A stretch of DNA of 40,756 bases from a bacterium (GCA_030689665.1 JAUYFS010000002.1:1-40756), one strand, 5' to 3'; shown: positions 3,695 through 40,330, counted from the stretch's first letter. Notes: generated by a model not told the origin, from the letters alone. Numbers and translations are program-made.

Positions 3695-6600
3695 TTACTC
3701 TTTCTTGGATTTGTTTTTTTTAAATCCAGTGCCTGCTAAAATCAGTTTACCAATAATAACATTTTCCTTCAAACCCCTTAAGGGGTCAACGCGTCCATCC
3801 AACGAGGCCTTGATTAAAACCCTTGAGGTTTGTTGGAATGAAGCTGCGGAAAGAAAACTATTCGTTGATAAGGAAACCCTGGAAATGCCCAAGAGAATCG
3901 GCTTTCCTTTTGCCGGAGTTTTGCCCTCTTTATTCAAACGGGCGTTTTCTTCTTCAAAAATAGGATTTTCAACAACCTCTCCCTGAGTCCATAATCCATC
4001 TCCCGGCTCGCTGATTTTTATTCTGGAAAACATCTGGCGAACAATGACCTCCACGTGTTTGTCGTGAATTTTTGCTCCCTGTGAAACATATATTTTTTGT
4101 ATTTCTTTTAGAATGTATCTCTGGGTTTTCTCTTCCCCGTTAATTTTAAAATATTTATCAAGGTCAACGTTCCCTTCTGTCAATTTCTGGCCAATAACAA
4201 TTTTTTCTCCGTTTTTAGCAAGAATTTTGCTCGTTGTTTTTATTTCAATAATTTCTTTTTTGTCTTTTTCGTCTTTTGTCTCAATTTTTATAATTCCATT
4301 GGTTTCGTCTATTTCCGAAATTTTTCCCTCAATGTCAGACAAAATTCCTTCAATTTTCGGATTTCTGTTTTCAAAAATTTCCTCAACTCTCGGCAAACCC
4401 TGGGTAATGTCGCTGGCACTCGCAACCCCGCCGGTGTGGAATGTTCTCATTGTCAGCTGGGTTCCCGGTTCTCCAATTGACTGCGCCGCGATAACGCCAA
4501 CCGCTTCCCCGCACTCAACTAATTTTGCTTTGCCCATATCCCAACCATAACATTTTTGGCAAACGCCTCTCAGTAATTTGCAACTTAATGGGCTTCTAAC
4601 CCTGATTTCCTGGATTGAATCGTCTTTTTTTATTTTATCCACAGAGTTCCAATCAATTAATTCGCCTTTTTTAACCAAAACATCGCCTTTGCTGTTTTTT
4701 ATTTCTTCCAAAACCACTCTTCCCAAAATTTTCATCGCAAAATCCTGGTTTAATTCATCCGCTTCTTTTTTGGAAATAACAATTCCTTTTTTATCTCCGC
4801 AGTCGTCTTCATAAACGATAAAATCATGGGCAACATCAACCAAGCGTCTGGTTAAATAACCTGCCATTGAAGTTCTTAAGGCGGTATCAACAGTGCCTTT
4901 TCTCGCCCCATGGGTGGAAATGAAATATTCCAAAACATCCAAACCCTCTTTAAAAGATCTTTTAACCGGCAATTCAATAATTTGGCCAGCCGGGTTGCTG
5001 ACCAACCCCTTCATTCCGGCCATCTGGGCCGGTTGAGACCAAGAACCCTTTGAACCTGAATCAATAATTGAAAAAACAGAGCCAAATTCAGACAATTTTT
5101 GCGGAACCAGTTTTTCCACCTCTGATTTTACTCTTTGCCAAACTTCAATAATATTTATTCTTTTTTCTTCCAAAGACAGCAATCCTTTTTGATAGTGAGT
5201 TTCAATTTTTTCAACTTCTTTTTCCGCTTCTTCAACGATTTTTTTCTTTTCTACCGGAATTACCAAGTCATCCATTCCCCAAGAAATTCCTGAAAGCGTT
5301 GCCGCTTCAACGCCTAATTCTTTAATATCGTCCAGATATTCCTGAGGTTCTTCAACTCCGGATTCCTCAACTCCGCAAATCTCAATAATTCGGCTGATTA
5401 TGCCCTCCATTTTCTTTGAATTTATGACATCGTTTATAAAATTCATTTGCTTGGGCAACACTTCGTTAAATAAAATTCTTCCGACAGAGGTTTCTATTAT
5501 TTCATTGTTAATCCTTACTTTAACCAAAGCTCTCGGGCTTACATGTTTTAAATCATGAGCCAAAATCGCTTCTTGCTCATTTGAAAAAATCTTGCCTTCG
5601 CCGATTTCTCCTTTTTTTATTTTGGTAAGCCAATAACAACCCAAAATAATGTCCTGGGTCGGCACGGTTATCGGAATTGCTGTTGCCGGTTTCAAAAGAT
5701 TTTTTGAAGAAAGCATTCTTTCCCCGGCTTCTTTTTGAGCCTCTTTGGATAAAGGCAAATGAACAGCCATTTGGTCGCCGTCAAAGTCAGCGTTAAATCC
5801 TTTACAAACCATTGGATGAACCCTTATTGCCTCGCCTTCAATTAATATCGGCCTGAATGCTTGAATTCCCAAACGATGAAGCGTTGGAGCGCGGTTTAAT
5901 AAAACATATTTTCCGGAAACAACTTCTTCCAAAATAGCCCAGACCTCGTCAGTTTGTTCGTCAATCAAACGGCTGGCGCCCTTCACATTATAAGCCAATT
6001 CCTTTTCAATAATTCCCCTGATGACAAACGGTTTAAATAATTCCAAGGCCATTTTCTTGGGCAAACCGCATTGGTCTAGTTTTAATTTCGGACCGACAAC
6101 AATTACCGAACGGCCCGAATAATCAACTCTTTTACCCAAAAGATTTTGCCTAAATCTGCCTTGTTTGCCCTGAAGCATGTCAGACAATGACTTCAAAACC
6201 CTTCTTCCCCCTGTCGTGGCGGTTGTGGTGCTTTTGCTTTTGCGCATTTTATTGTCAATCAAAGCGTCAACGGCTTCTTGAAGCATTCTTTTTTCGTTTC
6301 TAATAATAACTTCCGGAGATTTTATTTCTAAAAGATATTTTAATCTGTTATTTCTGTTTATAATTCTTCTGTAAAGGTCGTTTAAATCAGAAGAAGCGTA
6401 TCTTCCTCCGTCTAATTGAACAATCGGCCTCAAATCGGACGGTAAAATTGGAATGATTTCCAAAAACATCCATTCCGGCCTTATCCCAACCTTTATCATT
6501 CCCTGAATAAGTTTTAGGCGAATAAGCAATTTTTTTCTAGCTGCTGATTGAGTGTTTTTTATTTTTTCTTTTAATTCTTTAAAAAGTTCTTCTAAATTAA

Positions 6601-7381
6601 TTTTTTCAAATATTTTTCTTAAGGTTTCGGCGCCGGTTCCAGCGTCAAAAATTTCTCCAAACCTTAGCGACAAATCCTGATATTCCAGCTCTGAAATAAT
6701 TTTTAAGGGTTTAATCAGCTCAATTTCGGTCAACAATCTGTCTCTTGATTGGTCTAATTTTTCAATATTTTCATTGGTTTTTATTTTTTCGTTTTTCGCC
6801 CGCTTCGCCCGCGAATCGAGGCGAGCCCGCTTTTCCGAATCAAGATGAGCCCGCTTCGCCCCCGAATCAAGGCGAACTCTTTCTTTAATTTCAGCCGCTT
6901 TTCTTTTATATTCTTCTCCGATTTCTTTTATTTTTATTTCTTTTGCTTTTTCGTCCACCTCGGTAATAATGTAGTTTGAAAAATAAACGACTTTTTCAAC
7001 CTGCTGGGCGGGCGCGTCCAAAACCAAGGCAATTCTTGAAGGAACTCCTCTTAAAAACCAGATGTGGGCAACCGGAGCCGCTAATTTAATATGGCCCATT
7101 CTTTCTCTGCGGACAATTGATTTGGTAACTTCCACTCCGCACCTGTCGCAAATAATTCCCTTGTATCTTATTTTCCTGTATTTGCCGCAAGCGCACTCAT
7201 AATCTTTTTCCGGGCCAAAAATCCTTTCGCAAAACAAACCGTCTCTCTCAGACCTCTGAGTTCTATAATTTATCGTCTCTGGTTTAAGAACCTCGCCCTT
7301 TGACCATGATAAAATTTCATTTGGCGAAGCGATTTTTATTCTGATTGCCGTTATGTCTTGGGTTTTTAAATTTGGTTCCAT
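3695..7381 (-). CDS. rpoC: DNA-directed RNA polymerase subunit beta'
   Basis: 1228 aa. Contains the catalytic NADFDGDQM motif, an N-terminal Zn-binding cysteines segment (CACGKY...CDRCGVEV), and trigger-loop and bridge-helix regions. Confidence 0.97.
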   Translation of the reverse strand: MEPNLKTQDITAIRIKIASPNEILSWSKGEVLKPETINYRTQRSERDGLFCERIFGPEKDYECACGKYRKIRYKGIICDRCGVEVTKSIVRRERMGHIKLAAPVAHIWFLRGVPSRIALVLDAPAQQVEKVVYFSNYIITEVDEKAKEIKIKEIGEEYKRKAAEIKERVRLDSGAKRAHLDSEKRARLDSRAKRAKNEKIKTNENIEKLDQSRDRLLTEIELIKPLKIISELEYQDLSLRFGEIFDAGTGAETLRKIFEKINLEELFKELKEKIKNTQSAARKKLLIRLKLIQGMIKVGIRPEWMFLEIIPILPSDLRPIVQLDGGRYASSDLNDLYRRIINRNNRLKYLLEIKSPEVIIRNEKRMLQEAVDALIDNKMRKSKSTTTATTGGRRVLKSLSDMLQGKQGRFRQNLLGKRVDYSGRSVIVVGPKLKLDQCGLPKKMALELFKPFVIRGIIEKELAYNVKGASRLIDEQTDEVWAILEEVVSGKYVLLNRAPTLHRLGIQAFRPILIEGEAIRVHPMVCKGFNADFDGDQMAVHLPLSKEAQKEAGERMLSSKNLLKPATAIPITVPTQDIILGCYWLTKIKKGEIGEGKIFSNEQEAILAHDLKHVSPRALVKVRINNEIIETSVGRILFNEVLPKQMNFINDVINSKKMEGIISRIIEICGVEESGVEEPQEYLDDIKELGVEAATLSGISWGMDDLVIPVEKKKIVEEAEKEVEKIETHYQKGLLSLEEKRINIIEVWQRVKSEVEKLVPQKLSEFGSVFSIIDSGSKGSWSQPAQMAGMKGLVSNPAGQIIELPVKRSFKEGLDVLEYFISTHGARKGTVDTALRTSMAGYLTRRLVDVAHDFIVYEDDCGDKKGIVISKKEADELNQDFAMKILGRVVLEEIKNSKGDVLVKKGELIDWNSVDKIKKDDSIQEIRVRSPLSCKLLRGVCQKCYGWDMGKAKLVECGEAVGVIAAQSIGEPGTQLTMRTFHTGGVASASDITQGLPRVEEIFENRNPKIEGILSDIEGKISEIDETNGIIKIETKDEKDKKEIIEIKTTSKILAKNGEKIVIGQKLTEGNVDLDKYFKINGEEKTQRYILKEIQKIYVSQGAKIHDKHVEVIVRQMFSRIKISEPGDGLWTQGEVVENPIFEEENARLNKEGKTPAKGKPILLGISRVSLSTNSFLSAASFQQTSRVLIKASLDGRVDPLRGLKENVIIGKLILAGTGFKKNKSKKE
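6797..6877 (-). repeat. Three tandem GC-rich 24-27 nt units inside rpoC, encoding RLDSGAKRA / HLDSEKRA / RLDSRAKRA
   Basis: Plus strand reads cgcccgcttcgcccgcgaatcgaggcgagcccgcttttccgaatcaagatgagcccgcttcgcccccgaatcaaggcgaac. This is far more GC-rich than the surrounding gene. The same core (cgcccgcttcgcc..aatcgaggcgagccc) recurs in trxB at 15615..15644. Confidence 0.8.
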
Positions 7382-10910: not shown

Positions 10911-13900
10911 CTAGATGCAGACAGCCGAGGCAATCTGGTCTCCCGCCTTAAATTTCATAACTCTCACACCCCTCGCCATTCTTCCTAAAATTGAAATTGA
11001 TTTCAGTTCTGTTTTTATGACTTGCCCCTTTTTGGAAATAATAACCAAATCTTCTTCATTTTCTAAAATTTTGGCAAAAACTATTTCCCCTGTTTTTTCG
11101 TTAACCTTTAATGTGATAACGCCGGAACCGCCGCGCGACTGAATTCTGTAATTGCTTAATTTAACTTTTTTCCCAGACCCATTGCTTGTCAAAATCAAAA
11201 GATTTTCTTTTTGAATTTTTTCCTTGACAATATCCTGAATCGCCACCACCTCGTCATTGGGCGCCAATTTTATTCCTCGAACCCCGGAAGAAACCCTTCC
11301 CATAGTCCTGATTTCTTTTTCTTTAAACCTTATTGACTTGCCTTTTTTGGTAATTATTATCAATTCATCTCCCTTTTCAACCCTTACAACCTGCTTTAAT
11401 AAATCGTCCTTAAGCAATTTTATCGCTTTGATTCCGGTTCTCCTTACATTTTCAAAATCAATTTGCGCCGTTTTTTTGACAATGCCCTTTTTGGTCACCA
11501 TTGCCAAAAAACTGTCTGTTTCGCTTCCTTTTTTAACAGGAATCAAAGAAAGGACTTTTTCTTCAGGGCTAATCTCCAAAAAATTCATCAAACCCCTGCC
11601 CTTTGAAATTCTGCTGCCCTCAGGAATTTCATAGATATTTGTTTTAAACGCTTTTCCCGAATCCGTGAAAACCAACAAACTGTCTCTGGCTGAAGCCAAA
11701 GCAAAATGTTCCACCATGTCTTCTTCGCTGGTTTTCAAGCCAATCATACCCTTTCCGCCTCTTTTTTGAACTTTGTAGGTAGAAGGATTTATTCTTTTTA
11801 TGTAGCCGTCTTTGGTAAGAATAATAATCGTTTCTTCGTCAGGAATTAATTCCTCATCGCTTATTTCCCCGGCTTTTTGGCTTACAACTTTTGTTCTTCT
11901 CGGGCCGCCGTATTTTTCTTTTATTTCAAAAAGTTCGTCTTTCACCACTTTGTATATTTTTTTCTCGTTCTTCAAAATCTCCGTCCATTCTTTTATTTGT
12001 TTTAATTTCAATTCCAGCTCTTCCTTTATTTTTTCCCTTTCCAAGCGCGCCAAGCTCTGAAGTTTCATTTCCAAAATCGCATTGGATTGAATTTCGGTCA
12101 GTTTAAATTGTTTCATTAAATTAATCTTGGCATCGTCCCTGCTTTTTGACGCTTTTATGGTTTTGATAATCGCGTCTATTTTATTTAAGGCCTTGTCCAA
12201 ACCCTCTAAAATATGAACTCTTTCTTTGGCTTTGTTTAATTCATATTGAATTCTTCTGGTTATAACTTCCTTCCTGTGAGAAATAAAAAATGAAAGCGCT
12301 TCTTTTAAAGACAAAACCCTCGGCTGGATTCCATCAACCAAAGCCAGCAAATTAAGGTGAAAATTTTTCTGAAGGTCAGTGTATTTGTAAAAACTGTTTA
12401 AAATTCTTTGGGGCAATGCCTCTGGTTTCAATTCAATCATTATTCTCATTCCGTCTTTATCTGATTCGTCTCTTATGTCTTTTATTCCTTGCAGTTTTTT
12501 GTTTTCAACCAATTTTGCCATTTGCTCCAACAAACCGCTTTTTTCCACTTGAAAAGGAATTTCGGAAATTATAATTTGCTGGCGTCCTGTTTTCGTTTCT
12601 TCTACTTCCGCCTTTCCTCTCATTAATATCGGACCCTTGCCCTGAGAAAACGCTTTGATGATTTCTTTTTTATCAAAAATAAACCCGCCTGTCGGAAAAT
12701 CAGGACCTTGAACGAATTTAAATAAATCTTCGGTAGTGGCTTCCGGATTATCAATTAGAAAAGAAGTGGCGTCAACCAATTCGCTCAAATTATGGGGCGG
12801 AATATTGGTCGCCATTCCAACGGCAATTCCAGTAGCGCCGTTCAAAAGAAGCCCGGGAACAGCGGCAGGCAAAACAATCGGCTCTTTTCTTGTAGCGTCA
12901 TAATTGTCCCTAAAATCAACTGTTTCTTTCGCTATGTCTTTTAAAAGTTCTTCGCCAACCTTGGAAAGTTTTGCTTCGGTATAACGCTGCGCTGCCGGAG
13001 GGTCTCCGTCAATTGAATTATGCGCGAAAATACCAGCGCTTAAAGCAAAATTATGAGTGCCTTCTATTGTTAAATCATAAACATCTGCCGATTCCCCTAA
13101 AAATTCTTTTCTTGAAACTTTGTGGTTTCCATTAATGCTGCACAATAAATAATTAATGTCATTATTATAATATTTTTTAATTCCTAGGTCCCAACCGGTA
13201 AAACTCTTTATTTTAAAAATTGCCTTCCTGATATTTTCATAATTTTCTTTATCCAAAGACAAATTATTATCCTTTAAATAGTGGCATATCTTTTCAAACT
13301 TCTTTCTGCCCGTTAAATTTGTCTCTCTTTTCTTATTTGAATTAACTATCTTTTCGTGAAAAAACTGTTTATATTCAGGAATCCCCCAAAGCCTTTTTAG
13401 GGTAGCCGACGCTCGCTTGCTTATTTCTTTTATCTTTTCTGGATGTAATTCCAAATATCTTTTTGTGCTTTCCCTCAACATCTCAACCATTTTCTCCCTG
13501 TATTCCTGCTTTTCCCAATTTTTACGGTTCCTTAACGACAATCTTTCGGCATAGGATTTCCTATTTTTTAAATCCTCCCAAAACAGTTTTCTTCCCAATG
13601 CAAGCTTTTCTCTATATTCTTTGTCTGTCTTGTGTTTTTCGGATATAAAATTGTAATGGGTTTGCCAATGTTCTTTCCAATCCATTCTAGCTATATTTTC
13701 TGGATTATTGTTTAGTTTATTAAAATCCAGATGATGCCTTATCCTGCCCTTTTTTCTTTCATAAACTTTGTTTAATATATTATATTCATCTGATAAAATG
13801 TGGATAAAATCCCAAAGATTTGAAGACTGTTGAAAAACCATGGTATAACCATTCATATTGGGATCATCTTCCCTGGTTGAACTTCTAAAATAGCAGGGCA

Positions 13901-14555
13901 TTAACGAATCTCCTTTTTCCAGATTTTTTGCCTCTCTGTATTCCCCGTTCTTTAACATGAATTTATGATCCAGCGTACATTTAATTTCCTCACCATTGTC
14001 CAAAACTATTTTCATTATTTCCGCATACTTTGTTTTCCTTGGATATTTTATTTCCGCAATTTTAATTTTTCCGTCGCTATCAACAGTAAAAGTATAATTT
14101 TTCTTGCCTTGTTTATGTTCTTCTATCAGCTCTAAAAAAGACGCGTCTCTTCCGTCGGTTAGTTTAACCTTAGTTTCACCCGTAAAACAACCAAAATTTC
14201 CTTGGCCAATAATCAAAGGATATCTCATTGAAAAATCCTGCGCCATTCTAACCAATGCTTCATAAACAGACGCGTCCCCGTGAGGATGATACTTTCCCAA
14301 AACATCACCGGTAACAGCCGCTGATTTTCTGAATTTAGCGGACGAAGCCAAGCCCATATCGTGCATCGCGAAAAGAATTCTTCTGTGAACCGGTTTTAGC
14401 CCGTCTCTGACATCAGGCAAGGCGCGGGAAACGATAACGCTCATCGCGTAATCCAAGTAAGAATCTTTCATCTCTTTCACGATTTCAACTTGCTGGATTT
14501 GAGAATCTATATTTTGTTTGATATTTTTTATATCCTCTTCTTTTTCTTTTGGCAT
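10911..14555 (-). CDS. gyrA: DNA gyrase subunit A, interrupted by an in-frame intein (exteins about 823 aa)
   Basis: 1214 aa. N-extein reads ...GKYHPHGDASVYEALVRMAQDFSMRYPLIIGQGNFG. C-extein reads SIDGDPPAAQRYTEAKL... with the catalytic Tyr in QRYTE. C-terminal beta-pinwheel repeats are present. Confidence 0.95.
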   Translation of the reverse strand: MPKEKEEDIKNIKQNIDSQIQQVEIVKEMKDSYLDYAMSVIVSRALPDVRDGLKPVHRRILFAMHDMGLASSAKFRKSAAVTGDVLGKYHPHGDASVYEALVRMAQDFSMRYPLIIGQGNFGCFTGETKVKLTDGRDASFLELIEEHKQGKKNYTFTVDSDGKIKIAEIKYPRKTKYAEIMKIVLDNGEEIKCTLDHKFMLKNGEYREAKNLEKGDSLMPCYFRSSTREDDPNMNGYTMVFQQSSNLWDFIHILSDEYNILNKVYERKKGRIRHHLDFNKLNNNPENIARMDWKEHWQTHYNFISEKHKTDKEYREKLALGRKLFWEDLKNRKSYAERLSLRNRKNWEKQEYREKMVEMLRESTKRYLELHPEKIKEISKRASATLKRLWGIPEYKQFFHEKIVNSNKKRETNLTGRKKFEKICHYLKDNNLSLDKENYENIRKAIFKIKSFTGWDLGIKKYYNNDINYLLCSINGNHKVSRKEFLGESADVYDLTIEGTHNFALSAGIFAHNSIDGDPPAAQRYTEAKLSKVGEELLKDIAKETVDFRDNYDATRKEPIVLPAAVPGLLLNGATGIAVGMATNIPPHNLSELVDATSFLIDNPEATTEDLFKFVQGPDFPTGGFIFDKKEIIKAFSQGKGPILMRGKAEVEETKTGRQQIIISEIPFQVEKSGLLEQMAKLVENKKLQGIKDIRDESDKDGMRIMIELKPEALPQRILNSFYKYTDLQKNFHLNLLALVDGIQPRVLSLKEALSFFISHRKEVITRRIQYELNKAKERVHILEGLDKALNKIDAIIKTIKASKSRDDAKINLMKQFKLTEIQSNAILEMKLQSLARLEREKIKEELELKLKQIKEWTEILKNEKKIYKVVKDELFEIKEKYGGPRRTKVVSQKAGEISDEELIPDEETIIILTKDGYIKRINPSTYKVQKRGGKGMIGLKTSEEDMVEHFALASARDSLLVFTDSGKAFKTNIYEIPEGSRISKGRGLMNFLEISPEEKVLSLIPVKKGSETDSFLAMVTKKGIVKKTAQIDFENVRRTGIKAIKLLKDDLLKQVVRVEKGDELIIITKKGKSIRFKEKEIRTMGRVSSGVRGIKLAPNDEVVAIQDIVKEKIQKENLLILTSNGSGKKVKLSNYRIQSRGGSGVITLKVNEKTGEIVFAKILENEEDLVIISKKGQVIKTELKSISILGRMARGVRVMKFKAGDQIASAVCI
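13017..14189 (-). mobile_element. GyrA intein (391 aa) with an HNH-type homing endonuclease insert
   Basis: Starts with Cys (CFTGETKVKL, TGT at 14189..14187). Block B is CTLDHKF. C-terminal blocks are VYDLTIEGTHNFALSAGIFAHN, with the Asn codon at 13019..13017 followed by Ser+1. The central HNH signature is IRHHLDFNKLNNNPENIARMDWKEHWQTH. No LAGLIDADG motifs were seen. Confidence 0.87.
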
Positions 14556-15313: not shown

Positions 15314-16264
15314 TTATACACTATTTTCTAAAAATTTATAAATAGACAAAGTTGCCGACGCTCCCTGCCCAGCGGCAATGATTATCTGTTTAAAAGGAAA
15401 ATCAATAACATCACCTGCCGCAAACAAACCAGGTGTTTTCGTCTGAAAATTTGATAAATCAACTTTTATTTCTCCCCTTTCATTATAATCAGCCAAATCA
15501 CCGACAAAAAAACTTGTCGGGATATAGCCAATTTCCACAAAAATGCCGTCAATTTCTATTTCTTCCAATTCTTTTTTCAGTTTGTTTTCAAAAACAATTG
15601 ATTTCACAAATTTTCCGCCCGCTTCGCCAAATCGAGGCGAGCCCTTGATTTCTTTAATTTCAGAATTGATTATGGTTATAACGCCTTTTTCTTTTGCCTG
15701 TTCTTGAACCGATTCATCTGCCCTTGGTTTATCACTGCCTTCAAAAACATAAACCTTTGAGCAATAGCTAACAAGCCATAAAGCAGCGCTAAAACCGGAA
15801 TTTCCTCCGCCAATCACTCCGACTTTTTTATTTTTAAAAAGAGGGCCATCGCAAGTGACGCAATAAGAAACGCCTTTGCCCAAAAATTCTTTTTCTCCTT
15901 TGACATTTAAAATTCTTGGCTTGCTGCCAGAGGCGATTAAAACTGCTTTTGATTTAAAAATTTCCTTTTCGTTGTCAGTTAATTCAAAACCGCCATTTTT
16001 CTTTTCAATTTTGGTTATTTCTCTTTCTAGCGGTTTTATTTGAAATTTTTTAAGATGTTCAAAAAATTTTTCTACCAGCTCTGATCCGGATATTTCCAAA
16101 AATCCCGGATAATTTTCAATTAAAATCGCCCTGCTTGCCAAACCTCCCTTTTCAGAACCAATTAGTAAAAAATCCATGTTTTTTCTGAAAGCGTAAATCG
16201 CGGCTGATATTCCAGCCGGTCCTGTACCAACAATAATTAAATCATACACTTTTTGGTTTTCCAT
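15314..16264 (-). CDS. trxB: Thioredoxin-disulfide reductase
   Basis: FAD motif DLIIVGTGPAGISAAIY, redox-active CVTC, NADPH motif GVIGGGNSG, and C-terminal GLFAAGDV. I place the start at Met18 of the tracked ORF (MENQKVYDLIIVG, ATG at 16264). The tracked extension to 16315 runs through a repeat motif cluster. Confidence 0.9.
   Translation of the reverse strand: MENQKVYDLIIVGTGPAGISAAIYAFRKNMDFLLIGSEKGGLASRAILIENYPGFLEISGSELVEKFFEHLKKFQIKPLEREITKIEKKNGGFELTDNEKEIFKSKAVLIASGSKPRILNVKGEKEFLGKGVSYCVTCDGPLFKNKKVGVIGGGNSGFSAALWLVSYCSKVYVFEGSDKPRADESVQEQAKEKGVITIINSEIKEIKGSPRFGEAGGKFVKSIVFENKLKKELEEIEIDGIFVEIGYIPTSFFVGDLADYNERGEIKVDLSNFQTKTPGLFAAGDVIDFPFKQIIIAAGQGASATLSIYKFLENSV
15615..15644 (-). 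repeat. GC-rich hairpin element copy inside trxB, encoding SPRFGEAGG
   Basis: Plus strand ccgcccgcttcgccaaatcgaggcgagccc shares 13 + 15 identical nt with the rpoC unit at 6797..6829. It is read in a different frame: TCG CCT CGA TTT GGC GAA GCG in trxB versus CGC CTC GAT TCG CGG GCG AAG in rpoC. Confidence 0.7.
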
Positions 16265-16300
16265 ATTTTTAAAAATCATAAAATTTTGACTTTTGACTTT

Positions 16301-16334
16301 TGTTTCATGCTTCATGTTTTATGTTTCATGTTTT
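16301..16334 (-). promoter_or_regulatory. Cluster of CATGAAAC / CATGAAGC octamers upstream of trxB
   Basis: Minus strand reads AAACATGAAACATAAAACATGAAGCATGAAACA, overlapping the galU stop. A similar cluster lies upstream of prfB at 30273..30303. Confidence 0.3.
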
Positions 16335-24643: not shown

Positions 24644-24722
24644 TTTTTAAATTTTTTATTAATTTTTTCTTCAACTTCGCCTCGCCCGTGGTCGGGCTAC
24701 GGCCAAGGGGCCTAATTTTTGA

Positions 24723-25266: not shown

Positions 25267-25560
25267 TTAATTCCTTTGCCCGGTAGTAGAGCCGCCGAAG
25301 GCGGCTCTACTACCGGGGTTCGACTTTTTCTTTGGTTGAGATTCTAATATCTTTTCCATGGGACAAAATCCCTTTAAACTTTTGTGGGAAAAATAATTCC
25401 AGGTATCGTTAGCAATTTCAAGTATCCGATTTAATTCTTCAATGCCTTGTCCTCTATCAAAAATTGAAACAACCCTCATTAAATCGTCACTATCCTTTTC
25501 ATGGTAAATAATATCTTTTATGTGTTCTATCGTGAAAGGACTATTGATTTCTTTCAACAT
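25267..25560 (-). CDS. Hypothetical small protein (97 aa as tracked); its C-terminal tail is encoded by a GC-rich palindrome
   Basis: ATG start 27 nt downstream of the TPR gene stop. The last 17 residues (PGSRAAFGGSTTGQRN) are translated from the palindrome at 25279..25317. Confidence 0.5.
   Translation of the reverse strand: MLKEINSPFTIEHIKDIIYHEKDSDDLMRVVSIFDRGQGIEELNRILEIANDTWNYFSHKSLKGFCPMEKILESQPKKKSNPGSRAAFGGSTTGQRN
25279..25317. repeat. Perfect 18-bp-stem GC-rich palindrome
   Basis: cccggtagtagagccgcc-gaa-ggcggctctactaccggg. It is a GC-rich island in AT-rich surroundings. Confidence 0.85.
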
Positions 25561-26307: not shown

Positions 26308-26359
26308 ATTTTTTTAATTATGACATGCGTTTCAGTTACCTGGCTTAGTATGTGTTGGC

Positions 26360-26506
26360 TGCGGGACTAGGCCACCTTCGCCAAGGCTACGGCGAGCCAA
26401 GGGATTCGAAGGTGTTGCCCTTGTCCGCCTCCATTTTTACAAATTTCGGCGGGATAAAGCGTATTTTGCTTCGCAAAATACGGGGGCTAGGTTCTCGCCA
26501 CAGTCC
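26360..26506. repeat. Direct repeat copy A (147 bp), downstream of the NYN gene and upstream of the TPR gene
   Basis: Identical to 27367..27514 except for two substitutions and a 1-nt indel, all within gttgcccttgtcc versus gttactctttgtcc. GC-rich, with several internal helices. Confidence 0.92.
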
Positions 26507-26620: not shown

Positions 26621-27175
26621 TTAAAAGATTAACCTTTCAAAGAAAGATTGCCTCGCCCTTCTTGGAATATCTGCTAATCTTAAAAGAGAATTAGATATGA
26701 ATCCCCTAAAATACACGATCTCTATTTTTTTACCAAATATGTTCTTGGTTGGATCTAGGGCGCTAACATAGTCTCTATCATTAGAAACAAGAATTGCGGT
26801 ATCAAAGGTATTCTGGGCAGCTAAAGAAATCATATTTGCTGTAAGTTGTGTATCTAGGTTTTTTTCCTTAAGTTCTCTCCCAGCTCCTTGTAAATTACCA
26901 AATTTTACCTCAACTCCAGATAATTTTTGTATCTCGGCGTAGTATTGTGTTTGAATTGAGTATTTCTTTTTACTATCTGCGGTTTTTAACATCTGGGATG
27001 GCGGCGGAGTACAGTAGAAAAAAACAGCCACTAAGTTTCTATCACCAGTTAATTTTTGAGCAAGTTTTAATGGATTATAAAGACAAATCCATTTTTTATC
27101 GATCTTTTTCAGTTCACTTAAATATTTATAAACATTGGAATTATCTATAAATACTGCAACTCGTGTTGAATTCAT
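26621..27175 (-). CDS. NYN-domain (LabA/DUF88-like) putative ribonuclease
   Basis: Starts MNSTRVAVFIDNSNVYKYL (N-terminal Asp motif). Contains ...EKNLDTQL...DTAILVSNDRDYV, matching the NYN acidic-residue pattern. I place the start at the ATG at 27175; the tracked extension to 27229 reads through a terminator hairpin. Confidence 0.8.
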   Translation of the reverse strand: MNSTRVAVFIDNSNVYKYLSELKKIDKKWICLYNPLKLAQKLTGDRNLVAVFFYCTPPPSQMLKTADSKKKYSIQTQYYAEIQKLSGVEVKFGNLQGAGRELKEKNLDTQLTANMISLAAQNTFDTAILVSNDRDYVSALDPTKNIFGKKIEIVYFRGFISNSLLRLADIPRRARQSFFERLIF

Positions 27176-27199
27176 ATTTTCATTATACTTGTATAAGCA

Positions 27200-27270
27200 T
27201 AAAAAACAAATGGCGGCTGTCGCCGCCATTCGTTAGCTTGTCATAACCGAAGCTATAACAAGGATTTAAT
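27200..27270 (-). ncRNA. Leader or small RNA: UUCG-capped hairpin plus intrinsic terminator, immediately upstream of the NYN gene
   Basis: Minus strand has CTTGTTATAGC-TTCG-GTTATGACAAG (27262..27237). Its two G-U pairs are valid only on the minus strand. This is followed by CTAACGA, then ATGGCGGC-GACA-GCCGCCAT (27229..27210) and TTGTTTTTT. Confidence 0.45.
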
Positions 27271-27305: not shown

Positions 27306-27366
27306 GAGCATTGTCAACTCTTGTCGGTTATTTCGTTTATTCTTTGTCAAATCCTGTCAACTTTGT

Positions 27367-27514
27367 TGCGGGACTAGGCCACCTTCGCCAAGGCTACGGC
27401 GAGCCAAGGGATTCGAAGGTGTTACTCTTTGTCCGCCTCCATTTTTACAAATTTCGGCGGGATAAAGCGTATTTTGCTTCGCAAAATACGGGGGCTAGGT
27501 TCTCGCCACAGTCC
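27367..27514. repeat. Direct repeat copy B (148 bp), between tRNA-Gln and the NYN promoter region
   Basis: See copy A. Its promoter-proximal end (CCTAGTCCCGCA on the minus strand) matches 11 of the last 12 nt of the adjacent tRNA-Gln (CCTAGTCCGGCA). Confidence 0.92.
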
Positions 27515-30380: not shown

Positions 30381-30496
30381 GCTTCTCCCGCCAAGTTTTG
30401 CCAGAGCCAGCGGTCGGGGTCGAACCGACGACCTACGGTTTACGATACCGTTGCTCTACCGGCTGAGCTACGCTGGCAAAACTTGGCGGGAGAAGC
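30381..30496. repeat. Perfect 24-bp inverted repeat flanking, and overlapping by 5 nt, tRNA-Thr
   Basis: gcttctcccgccaagttttgccag (30381..30404) is the exact reverse complement of ctggcaaaacttggcgggagaagc (30473..30496). The latter includes the first 5 nt of the tRNA. Confidence 0.93.
30405..30477 (-). tRNA. tRNA-Thr (anticodon CGT)
   Basis: GCCAGCG TA GCTC AGCCGGTA GAGC A ACGGT ATCGTAA ACCGT AGGTC GTCGG TTCGACC CCGAC CGCTGGC T. All four stems are fully paired. No encoded CCA. Confidence 0.93.
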
Positions 30497-30608
30497 TGCC
30501 GCCCCGTTTTACGGGGCGAGCCTCGCCCTTTTAAGGCGGAAGCTACCTTGGCGGTGCGGGATATGGGAATCGGATTGTGCTTGGTCCCGTAACAATTTTG
30601 CTCAGTTC

Positions 30609-38788: not shown

Positions 38789-40330
38789 TTAAATAATCGG
38801 CCTGTCTAAAAAATCTTTTAAGGTTTCTTTTAATTTTTCAATTCTTGATTCCTTTTCTTTGTCTTCAATTCTTTCAACCCCCTTAAATCTTTCTTTCGGC
38901 GCTTCTTTGATTTCTTCGCTCTGCTGTCTTTTCATGCAAGATTTGCAATAAACGGGCAACCCGGGTTTGGGAAGAAACGGCACTTTTATTTTTTTGCCGC
39001 AAAGAACGCAGGTCGTATCGTAAAGATTAAAAGCAAGCGGCGCTTCCCCTCTGGTAACAATATCAGAAGCCCATCTTATTATTTTTTCTTCCACCTTTAA
39101 TCTGTTGGTGGCATATCTTTCTCTGCATGATTTTATTATTTTTTCTCTGTGTGAAGCTTCCGGAGCTTCAAAAAGCGGCAAAGAAGTGATTGAAAAGGGC
39201 CTGGTTGTGATTCCATTAACCATTACTTTCGCGCACATCTGGTATTTTGACAAATTAACCATATCAAGAACGGTAAATTCCGGGCTGAATTCTTTTTCTA
39301 AAAATTCCGCGTCTTCGGCGCCAACCCTAAAAATAACAAGACTGCCAACATTGCCAAAAACAGCGTCTTTCACTGACAATTCCATCTGGGTAATATATTG
39401 GTGGGCTAAAATTAAATTCAGCCGGTATTTTCTGGCTTCTGATAAAATATTGACAAAAGATTCCGTGGCAAAATTCTGAAATTCATCAACATATAAAAAG
39501 AAATCTTTTCTTTCTTCTTCTTTGACATTAACTCTGGACATCGCGGAAAATTGAAGTTTGGTGATTAAAAGAGCTCCCAGCAAACGGGACGCGTCTTCTC
39601 CGATTTTTCCTTTTGACAAATTGATTATCAAAATTTTTCCGTTGTCCATAACATCTCTCATGTCAAAAGAGGTCTTTACTTGACCGACAATGTTTCTGAT
39701 TAACGGAGAAGCTATAAACTGGCCAATTTTGTTTTGTATGGCCGCGGTTGCTTCCATTTCATATCTCTGCGTGTATCTGGCAAATTCTTTTTCCCAAAAC
39801 GCCCTGATAATCGGGTCTTTTAGTTTTTCGGTAACATCTTTTCTGAAATCCGGGTCTGAAAGCATTCTGTGAATTCCCAAAAGCGTTGAACCCTTGTATT
39901 CCAAAAGCGCCAAAATCGCATTGTTTAAAATATATTCCATTCTGGCTGACCAGACATCGGGCCAGATTTTTTTAAAAACACTCATCAGTCCGCTGGCAAC
40001 CAAATGCCGGTCTTCAACAGCGACATCTTCCATAATATTAAAAGCAATCGGGTATTCTATGTCAGCCGGATTTATGTAAATAACATCGTTTATTCTTTTA
40101 GCCGGAATATAGTCCAAAAGTTCTTCGCACGCTTCCCCGTGCGGGTCTAAAAAAGCCAAACCATGTCCGTTGCGAATATCTTGGATAGCCAGATTTTTTA
40201 TCAGCGTAGTTTTCCCGACTCCGGTTTTACCCATAACATAAAAATGCCTTCGGCGGTCATCCAATTTAATTCCGATTTTTTTCTGAACATCCCTGAAATT
40301 TGTTTTTCCAAAAAAAGTGATTTCTTCCAT
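38789..40330 (-). CDS. TraD/VirD4-like (type IV coupling protein-like) P-loop ATPase, no TM segment, with a C-terminal CxxC...CxxC zinc ribbon
   Basis: 513 aa. Walker A GKTGVGKTT, Walker B FFLYVDEFQNF, and ILAHQY. The zinc ribbon is CVLCGKKIKVPFLPKPGLPVYCKSC, followed by a charged tail. Confidence 0.78.
   Translation of the reverse strand: MEEITFFGKTNFRDVQKKIGIKLDDRRRHFYVMGKTGVGKTTLIKNLAIQDIRNGHGLAFLDPHGEACEELLDYIPAKRINDVIYINPADIEYPIAFNIMEDVAVEDRHLVASGLMSVFKKIWPDVWSARMEYILNNAILALLEYKGSTLLGIHRMLSDPDFRKDVTEKLKDPIIRAFWEKEFARYTQRYEMEATAAIQNKIGQFIASPLIRNIVGQVKTSFDMRDVMDNGKILIINLSKGKIGEDASRLLGALLITKLQFSAMSRVNVKEEERKDFFLYVDEFQNFATESFVNILSEARKYRLNLILAHQYITQMELSVKDAVFGNVGSLVIFRVGAEDAEFLEKEFSPEFTVLDMVNLSKYQMCAKVMVNGITTRPFSITSLPLFEAPEASHREKIIKSCRERYATNRLKVEEKIIRWASDIVTRGEAPLAFNLYDTTCVLCGKKIKVPFLPKPGLPVYCKSCMKRQQSEEIKEAPKERFKGVERIEDKEKESRIEKLKETLKDFLDRPII

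Follow-up and report, generated by a model that had tools for sequence, protein, structure and literature searches.

The short GC-rich block inside the trxB gene of the 40,756-nt stretch of DNA analysed here (the window) is best explained as a copy of an inserted, mobile and non-autonomous palindromic element, and we put the probability of this reading at about three in four. The window is a contig of ~36% G+C that belongs to the Patescibacteria (Candidate Phyla Radiation) by its TrxB homologues, and the genes identified in it are all on the minus strand, except for one HD-domain ORF.

A GC-rich unit shared by trxB and rpoC

The initial annotation reported that a GC-rich element in trxB matches a unit in rpoC at 6797..6829 over 13 + 15 contiguous nucleotides. 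We recovered both exact blocks, GGGCTCGCCTCGATT (15 nt) and GGCGAAGCGGGCG (13 nt), which are absent elsewhere in the window. When up to three mismatches were allowed, the two blocks gave 4 and 13 matches, respectively, against 0.5 and 4.3 expected, and neither count was attained by any shuffle. Positions 15615-15644 of the window read ccgcccgcttcgccaaatcgaggcgagccc, and the trxB unit on the coding strand parses as GCTCGCCTCGATT-T-GGCGAAGCGG, 24 nt in length (Table 1). The peptide across the unit is ...KGSPRFGEAGGKF... in TrxB, and that at the matching stretch of RpoC is ...RVRLDSGAKRAHLDSEKRARLDSRAKRAKNEK.... The annotated translations, SPRFGEAGG and RLDSRAKRA, are thus correct, and the reading frames of the two copies are one base apart. 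The annotation took nucleotide conservation without amino-acid conservation as the mark of an inserted element; this argument is backed by the empty sites, the TrxB homologues, the copies in unrelated genes in six frames and the AlphaFold turn described below. As an observation on the gene itself, the longest trxB ORF reaches 16315, 17 codons upstream of the start of the 316-aa database protein P0001 (window 16264-16315), and the homologues align from the downstream ATG.

Table 1. Features of the window and states of the insertion sites in relatives (^ marks the junction)
Feature	Position in window	Strand	Description
trxB (thioredoxin-disulfide reductase)	15314..16264	-	Host gene; 316-aa product from ATG at 16264
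trxB unit	15619..15642	-	GCTCGCCTCGATTTGGCGAAGCGG; 24 nt; encodes SPRFGEAG, residues 209-216 of the 316-aa TrxB
rpoC (RNA polymerase beta')	3695..7381	-	Host of the tandem array; Pfam RNA_pol_Rpb1_1-5 on the syntenic gene
rpoC array	6800..6877	-	Three head-to-tail units, 78 nt; 26-aa insert VRLDSGAKRAHLDSEKRARLDSRAKR
rpoC unit, first in coding order	6851-6877	-	27 nt
rpoC unit, second	6827-6850	-	24 nt
rpoC unit, third	6800-6826	-	27 nt
trxB site			Window: 24-nt unit; L004: empty, AAG GGA GAC AAA; L001: 54-nt version, same codon
rpoC site			Window: 78-nt array; L004: empty, AAAGG^GCAAAAAAT; L001: empty
ValRS, empty			L205: TCC AAA GAGTTT; L206 likewise empty: TCA GCA GAGTTT; no net change
ValRS, shell only			L204: AA[CCCGCCTGCCGGTAAGGCAGG]A; +21 nt (palindromic shell)
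ValRS, shell + core			L026: ...CCTGCCGGC[CCGCTTCGCCGAATCGAGGCGAGC]GAGGCAGG...; +24 nt more

The initial annotation had also considered that the block might be an assembly chimera. Logan contigs of 11,030 nt and 6,426 nt, assembled independently from a groundwater metagenome run, contradict this: they have 0 differences across the trxB and rpoC regions, and the block is therefore not a chimera of assembly. In two further groundwater runs, the rpoC array is matched by a large number of unrelated contigs. An artefact of assembly or sequencing in general, in favour of which we found nothing, is barely credible in view of the identical Logan assembly, the version of the insert found in three assemblies from different samples (see below), the long essential ORFs that all inserts leave open, and the many assembly and project names under which the carriers were deposited.

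Empty and filled sites in close relatives

Syntenic contigs from other samples were found via TrxB homologues, and their identities were compared in rpoB, rpoC, trxB and one neighbouring gene. The window and L004 are sisters (89-92% nucleotide identity), and L001 is the outgroup (85%). The search for empty sites in related genomes, proposed in the initial annotation, returned them at both loci, in L004 at trxB and rpoC and in L001 at rpoC (Table 1); in longer form, the rpoC empty site of L004 reads AAAGAAAGG^GCAAAAAAT. Only the window's lineage has the rpoC array. At trxB, there was either a clean loss in L004 or two gains at one codon. Copies of the element are gained and lost between close relatives.

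The 54-nt trxB version is identical in three independent assemblies (L001, L002 and L003). It corresponds to the window's unit with the four-base loop swapped for 34 nt that contain a second, inner unit, and in its fold one hairpin encloses the other (-16.7 kcal/mol, z -2.0). The reading frame switches accordingly, giving the peptide SPRS-ARLDSELKR-TGEAG.

The insert in the TrxB protein

Pfam Pyr_redox_2 and Pyr_redox_3 were assigned to the TrxB homologues. Their alignment bounded the insert, with a 2-residue turn at its position in 107 of the 111 parsable homologues. According to the initial annotation, finding the same peptide in TrxB orthologues of unrelated lineages would speak against an insertion; among the 120 best homologues, the peptide is confined to two, the window's own protein and P0003. 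In the AlphaFold model of the insert-bearing TrxB (mean pLDDT 92.5), the insert lies in the turn between strands 201-210 and 218-227. The block of residues 211-220 averages a pLDDT of 68, the lowest of any 10-residue block in the model, and is flanked by confident segments. The eight extra residues are thus predicted to be a low-confidence surface turn of a β-hairpin in the NADPH domain. The annotation had placed the insert in a strand-loop region just before the DGIFVEIG segment. This needs a small correction: the insert is about 25 residues upstream of DGIFVEIG, at the turn that joins two NADPH-domain strands.

Distribution across genomes

We scanned one genome per species, 185,579 species in all, with the pattern GCTCGCCTYGATT-N(1-7)-GGCGAAGCGG. 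The core was found at no fewer than 119 loci, whereas our arithmetic gives ~0.2 expected by chance. The identical 24-mer GCTCGCCTCGATTCGGCGAAGCGG occurs in at least 91 copies, in which all 24 positions are conserved. Most of the carriers among the matches listed are Patescibacteria of many classes. The others listed are Omnitrophota, Thermodesulfovibrionia/Nitrospirota (Nitrospira), Ignavibacteria (Ignavibacteriales, Melioribacteraceae), Planctomycetota (Pirellulales, Phycisphaerae) and Bdellovibrionales. Taxon labels of MAGs, such as 'uncultured Gammaproteobacteria', may be unreliable, and the homology check covered the Ignavibacteria case only. Three of the matches listed have a length that is not a multiple of three, and the two of these in high-G+C genomes look like chance matches.

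The occurrence is sporadic: one of 80 unselected Patescibacteria loci around rpoB (1.22 Mb in total) carries the element, these loci having been taken from a metagenome scan with RpoB that returned relatives of at most 68% identity. There were 0 matches to the element in 2.9 million viral contigs and none in 50,697 phage records, and 72,556 plasmids gave chance-level partial matches in GC-rich replicons only. Rfam 15 gave no match to the element in a gathering-threshold scan of the whole window or in E-value scans of the rpoC array and eight shell-plus-core loci, where nothing came near the gathering score. A literature search for the exact 24-mer, six encoded peptides and keywords found no description.

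In the Omnitrophota MAG JAZDOX01 (L006, L038, L041, L050, L059, L060, L074, L088, L098, L102, L104, L108 and L110), we observed a 30-nt variant of the core with the loop TGCCATC. This variant forms the centre of a ~100-nt repeat that is present on many contigs, often near contig ends, and looks like a composite element amplified in this lineage.

Coding context and encoded peptides

Among the matches listed, 53 of 123 copies (43%) are internal to ORFs of at least 200 aa, none of them with a stop codon, and 33 look intergenic. All six frames are used, and the 39 sense and 38 antisense copies listed reveal no bias of gene orientation. The sense frames encode ARLDSAKRA, LASIRRSG and SPRFGEAG, and the antisense frames PLRRIEAS, RFAESRRA and PASPNRGEP. 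The hosts include ValRS, TyrRS, EF-Ts, RecG, DnaE, class II ribonucleotide reductase (RNR, two copies), PBP2, GatA, KsgA, PyrD, Pgk and GlgA, identified by eye from the sequence, with confirmation by a search for ValRS only. Among the matches listed, the variable gap is 1, 4 or 7 nt in 11 of 14 variant types, and the unit is consequently 24, 27 or 30 nt long in genic and intergenic copies alike. Persistence in essential genes can be attributed to this multiple-of-three length, to the lack of stop codons in all six frames and to the short peptides, which are hydrophilic or rich in Gly/Pro/Ser/Arg.

These data also bear on whether any transfer between sites is needed. Local replication slippage or duplication of GC-rich codons, or selection of a protein linker motif, could be invoked for the tandem array in rpoC, where slippage probably alters the number of units. 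Neither process fits the same 24-mer in unrelated genes, different phyla and six frames, nor empty sites at which a clean foreign block has entered AT-rich sequence, and we regard such a local origin as extremely improbable.

Anatomy, folding and target of the unit

The unit is GC-rich and imperfectly palindromic, with conserved ends GCTCGCCTCG...CGAAGCGG, usually followed by GC, and a short, variable middle. Together with this GC, it forms a 26-nt quasi-palindrome with 10-nt arms GCTCGCCTCG and CGAAGCGGGC; the trxB unit does so with the adjoining GC at 15617-15618. GCTCGCCTCG matches the reverse complement of CGAAGCGGGC at 8 of 10 positions, and the arms are also simply the stem of the hairpin. 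The unit can pair either through seven paired bases with one bulged A or through the 10-nt arms at 8/10. The loop CTYGATT resembles CTTGATA, which we take to be the nick site of pC194-type rolling-circle replicons. In terms of nearest-neighbour energies, the fold of a single unit is no more stable than those of composition-matched shuffles (z -0.4). The unit contains the motif GCGAAGC, which, in single-stranded DNA, forms a mini-hairpin that is reported to be nuclease-resistant, far more stable than standard models predict and frequent at replication and transcription origins (PMC13037366). This stability beyond the models may explain the unremarkable computed fold.

The mini-hairpin (PMC13037366) and the conservation of 24 out of 24 positions in 91 or more copies could alternatively mean that the unit is kept for a host function in DNA or RNA, such as a pause site, a primase or SSB-excluding site or an mRNA-stability hairpin, with dispersal being secondary. 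This explanation overlaps with a mobile element, but copies have no orientation bias relative to genes or GC skew (68:55 for the latter among the matches listed), they sit at arbitrary positions within unrelated genes, and close relatives do without them. We consider it quite improbable.

The base 3' of the unit is G in 119 of 122 copies among the matches listed, and the position after it is occupied by C in 98 copies and by T in 16. Filled sites have a net gain of 24 nt, so that either a 24-nt unit entered directly 5' of GC/GT, or 22 nt entered together with a duplication of GC. The pre-insertion sites are AAAGG^GCAAAA in rpoC, which is a real empty site, and, as inferred from filled genes, GAAG^GCAAG in EF-Ts, TTTG^GCGGC in TyrRS and GAT^GCGGAA in RecG. 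Judged by their sequences, these four targets would fit a 24-nt unit entering 5' of GC/GT. The trxB target, GG^GAGA, has no GC. We found no unambiguous target-site duplication; the GC on both sides is either a 2-bp duplication or part of the target.

Nesting of units and palindromic modules

Among the matches listed, 27 of 120 cores are nested in further palindromes, of which there are at least eight kinds; earlier copies of the element are among them, and the junction is in or beside the loop. Head-to-tail arrays were found in rpoC, L025, L070 and L160. They would be explained by the GC with which the unit begins, because a new copy can land before the old one.

The valyl case illustrates nesting within a single gene. 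ValRS of L026 is clearly ignavibacterial by homology search, and its relatives, at 93-95% amino-acid identity, exhibit three states at one site: empty, shell, and shell plus core (Table 1). The 24-nt core in L026 is placed within the loop of the shell hairpin. The series from an empty site over a 21-nt shell to a shell with the core in its loop therefore indicates stepwise insertion. At a second ValRS site, in the set of L204, L207 and L208, we observed GC-rich palindromic modules of 21 and 33 nt, in frame just before GCACAAA; the 33-nt module contains CCTGCCTGTCCGGCAGGCAGG. The 24-nt core thus appears to be one of a family of codon-length GC-rich palindromic inserts.

Search for a mobilising enzyme

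We found no transposase, HUH or reverse-transcriptase gene in the 40.7-kb window. There was also no RAYT gene within the window and no recurrent gene among the loci, which number at least 119. All-against-all clustering of 2,324 ORFs from the 119 listed loci detected no recurrent family, the largest being ABC ATPases in 8 of 119. The lack of such enzyme genes in the window and of a gene family recurring near the copies is the reason for calling the element non-autonomous. The gene at 38789-40330 (minus strand) of the window looks similar to those of type IV secretion coupling proteins (TrwB/VirD4). It has homologues in 5 of the 119 listed element loci, two of which (L081 and L120) have the element within the gene; the association is probably due to chance.

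Could the unit have been reduced by deletion from a larger IS or MITE to its minimal form, two joined 10-nt terminal inverted repeats, and be moved by a DDE transposase with a 2-bp GC target duplication? The ends are indeed conserved around a variable interior, which in the units of L070 measures 6, 12 and 19 nt between identical ends; the GC flanks on both sides could be the 2-bp duplication, and the Omnitrophota MAG has the core within a ~100-nt repeat. However, neither a full-length IS nor a longer element with the same ends was present in ~2.1 Mb of loci, where paired 10-nt ends 0.3-4 kb apart looked like chance and none was recurrent. No transposase gene recurs near the listed copies, and single-strand targeting would better account for the preference for hairpin loops. 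To our knowledge, 22-26 bp is also too short for both ends to meet in a DDE transposase complex. Such a derivation is unlikely.

We also considered that the copies are short cDNA or templated DNA, written from a conserved RNA or DNA template by a retroelement of the DGR, retron or group II type or by template switching during repair. The carrier phyla are also rich in diversity-generating retroelements, and the frequent similarity of the 3' flanks to the GCGG/GCGA of the unit itself may represent microhomology. In L109, the copies flank a cassette that looks DGR-like by eye: two cores (~1256-1279 and 4661-4684), each within an identical longer direct repeat, enclose a reverse-transcriptase-like ORF, a four-helix-bundle (Avd-like) ORF, variable-repeat-like C-termini, and target and template repeats. 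On the other hand, reverse-transcriptase ORFs are present in just 2 of the 119 listed loci (that of L109 clusters with that of L107), 5'-truncated copies and A-to-N changes were not seen, and the unit has no Rfam family or conserved RNA match, which makes a templated origin very improbable.

For the mobile palindromic element that we prefer, copies would be made and inserted as folded single strands, directly 5' of GC or GT, by an enzyme supplied in trans, and would spread between phyla by horizontal transfer. The leading candidate would be an enzyme of the HUH/Y1 type, as in REP/RAYT and IS200/IS605. By analogy with these systems, a single-strand HUH mechanism is favoured because the element is a hairpin, shows no clear duplication and prefers hairpin loops as sites. 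The absence of a bias of copies relative to GC skew counts against a single-strand mechanism at the replication fork, since a bias might be expected there. As a specific proposal, we consider the HUH mechanism rather doubtful. A selfish element without a known vector does not readily explain why the 24-mer is identical in different phyla. We counted this, along with the sporadic occurrence, the absence from the viral, phage and plasmid collections and the failure to find a mobilising enzyme, against the mobile element as our best explanation.

Comparison with known systems

The nearest known things are intragenic REPs and Rickettsia palindromic elements (RPEs) (PMC3733652, PMC10969869). RPEs are palindromic, non-autonomous sequences found in frame in unrelated housekeeping genes, where they add a peptide without destroying the protein (PMC10969869). 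Likewise, the unit is in frame in conserved protein genes (trxB, rpoC, ValRS, EF-Ts, TyrRS, RecG, DnaE, RNR, Pgk and others). In contrast to RPEs, which comprise ten families of ~100-150 bp in Rickettsia, it is only 24-30 nt long, about five times shorter, and occurs in other phyla; its high GC content contrasts with the AT-rich genomes around it, it can be read in all six frames, and the identical sequence is found in several phyla. REP/REPIN sequences are imperfect palindromes of 20-40 nt with a GTAG or CGTC tag, some of them intragenic and many of those in replication or repair genes, and REPs are thought to be moved in trans by the Y1 (HUH) transposase RAYT acting on folded single strands (PMC3733652). 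As an imperfect palindrome of 24-30 nt, the unit falls within this size range, but it lacks the GTAG or CGTC tag and has a variable 5' flank and GC or GT as its 3' flank. As far as is known, REP families are species- or genus-specific, of high copy number and mostly extragenic, whereas 43% of the listed copies of the unit lie inside long ORFs and the 24-mer crosses phyla.

Bacterial MITEs (Correia, ERIC, Nezha, QMITE) are non-autonomous elements with terminal inverted repeats that occasionally make in-frame fusions (PMC10969869). They differ from the unit in their size of 50-500 bp, their clear target duplications and their related IS; we saw none of these for the unit, the IS with the same ends being absent from the ~2.1 Mb of loci. 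PARCELs are coding repeats with dyad symmetry that are horizontally scattered among distant microbes (PMC2996958). Unlike the unit, they are 25-residue (75-nt) units in ORFs of unknown function that form an HMM-detectable protein family, and they are not six-frame insertions into conserved housekeeping genes. Fungal mitochondrial GC clusters and double-hairpin elements are short GC-rich hairpins that invade AT-rich genomes, including coding regions, and form arrays; we know of no enzyme of their own. They are organellar, their sequences are unrelated to the unit, and their lengths are usually not multiples of three. The inserts described here apparently constitute a widespread and previously undescribed class of codon-length GC-rich hairpins.

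Other features of the window

The gyrA ORF at 10911-14555 (minus strand) encodes 1214 aa, compared with 820 and 823 aa in the syntenic L001 and L004. Pfam assigned an intein splicing domain to residues 132-513 of GyrA, and L001 and L004 lack the intein (~13017-14162). A direct repeat of ~150 nt occurs in two nearly identical copies, at 26355-26506 and 27362-27514, on either side of an NYN-domain gene (26621-27229). The minus strand of the repeat folds strongly (-63.4 kcal/mol, z -4.5); the repeat matches neither Rfam families nor tRNAs and is missing from all fetched loci, and the pair could be an unknown structured RNA or cassette ends. As the repeat contains GCTCGCC-N-GGCGAAG, we considered it as a parent of the element and rejected it, for its fold pairs those bases otherwise and none of the loci has a copy. 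Further intergenic GC-rich palindromes are located at 24672-24714, 25278-25318 and 30481-30528. The second resembles a terminator, its perfect stem of 17 bp enclosing a CCGAAGG / CCTTCGG loop; the third is between tRNA-Thr and tRNA-Gly and contains GGGGCGAGCCTCGCCC.

Implications

In its boldest form, which we offer tentatively and as possible rather than probable, the element may be the smallest mobile DNA yet seen: a stop-free, codon-length hairpin of 24 nt that moves horizontally among at least six bacterial phyla, nests into the loops of palindromes and writes 8-residue loops into essential proteins. Its mover would be neither encoded by the element nor closely linked to it, and possibly tied to replication via GCGAAGC, and the element would be a member of a wider, undescribed set of codon-length, GC-rich palindromic modules (21, 24, 27, 30 and 33 nt).

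Selfish DNA within protein genes is represented by the RPEs of Rickettsia and a few intragenic REPs; the element would add a far smaller unit and many uncultured phyla, above all the Candidate Phyla Radiation. Identity over 24 nt across phyla would mean that a very short sequence is often transferred horizontally, or else that each of its positions is read by a conserved machine. In practical terms, the unit would be a marker of recent gain and loss at the strain level and a cause of contig breaks. It could also account for the loop insertions that conserved proteins have in particular lineages and for spurious GC-rich peptides among the genes called in metagenomes, and its copies would form a natural collection of sites at which essential enzymes tolerate insertions.
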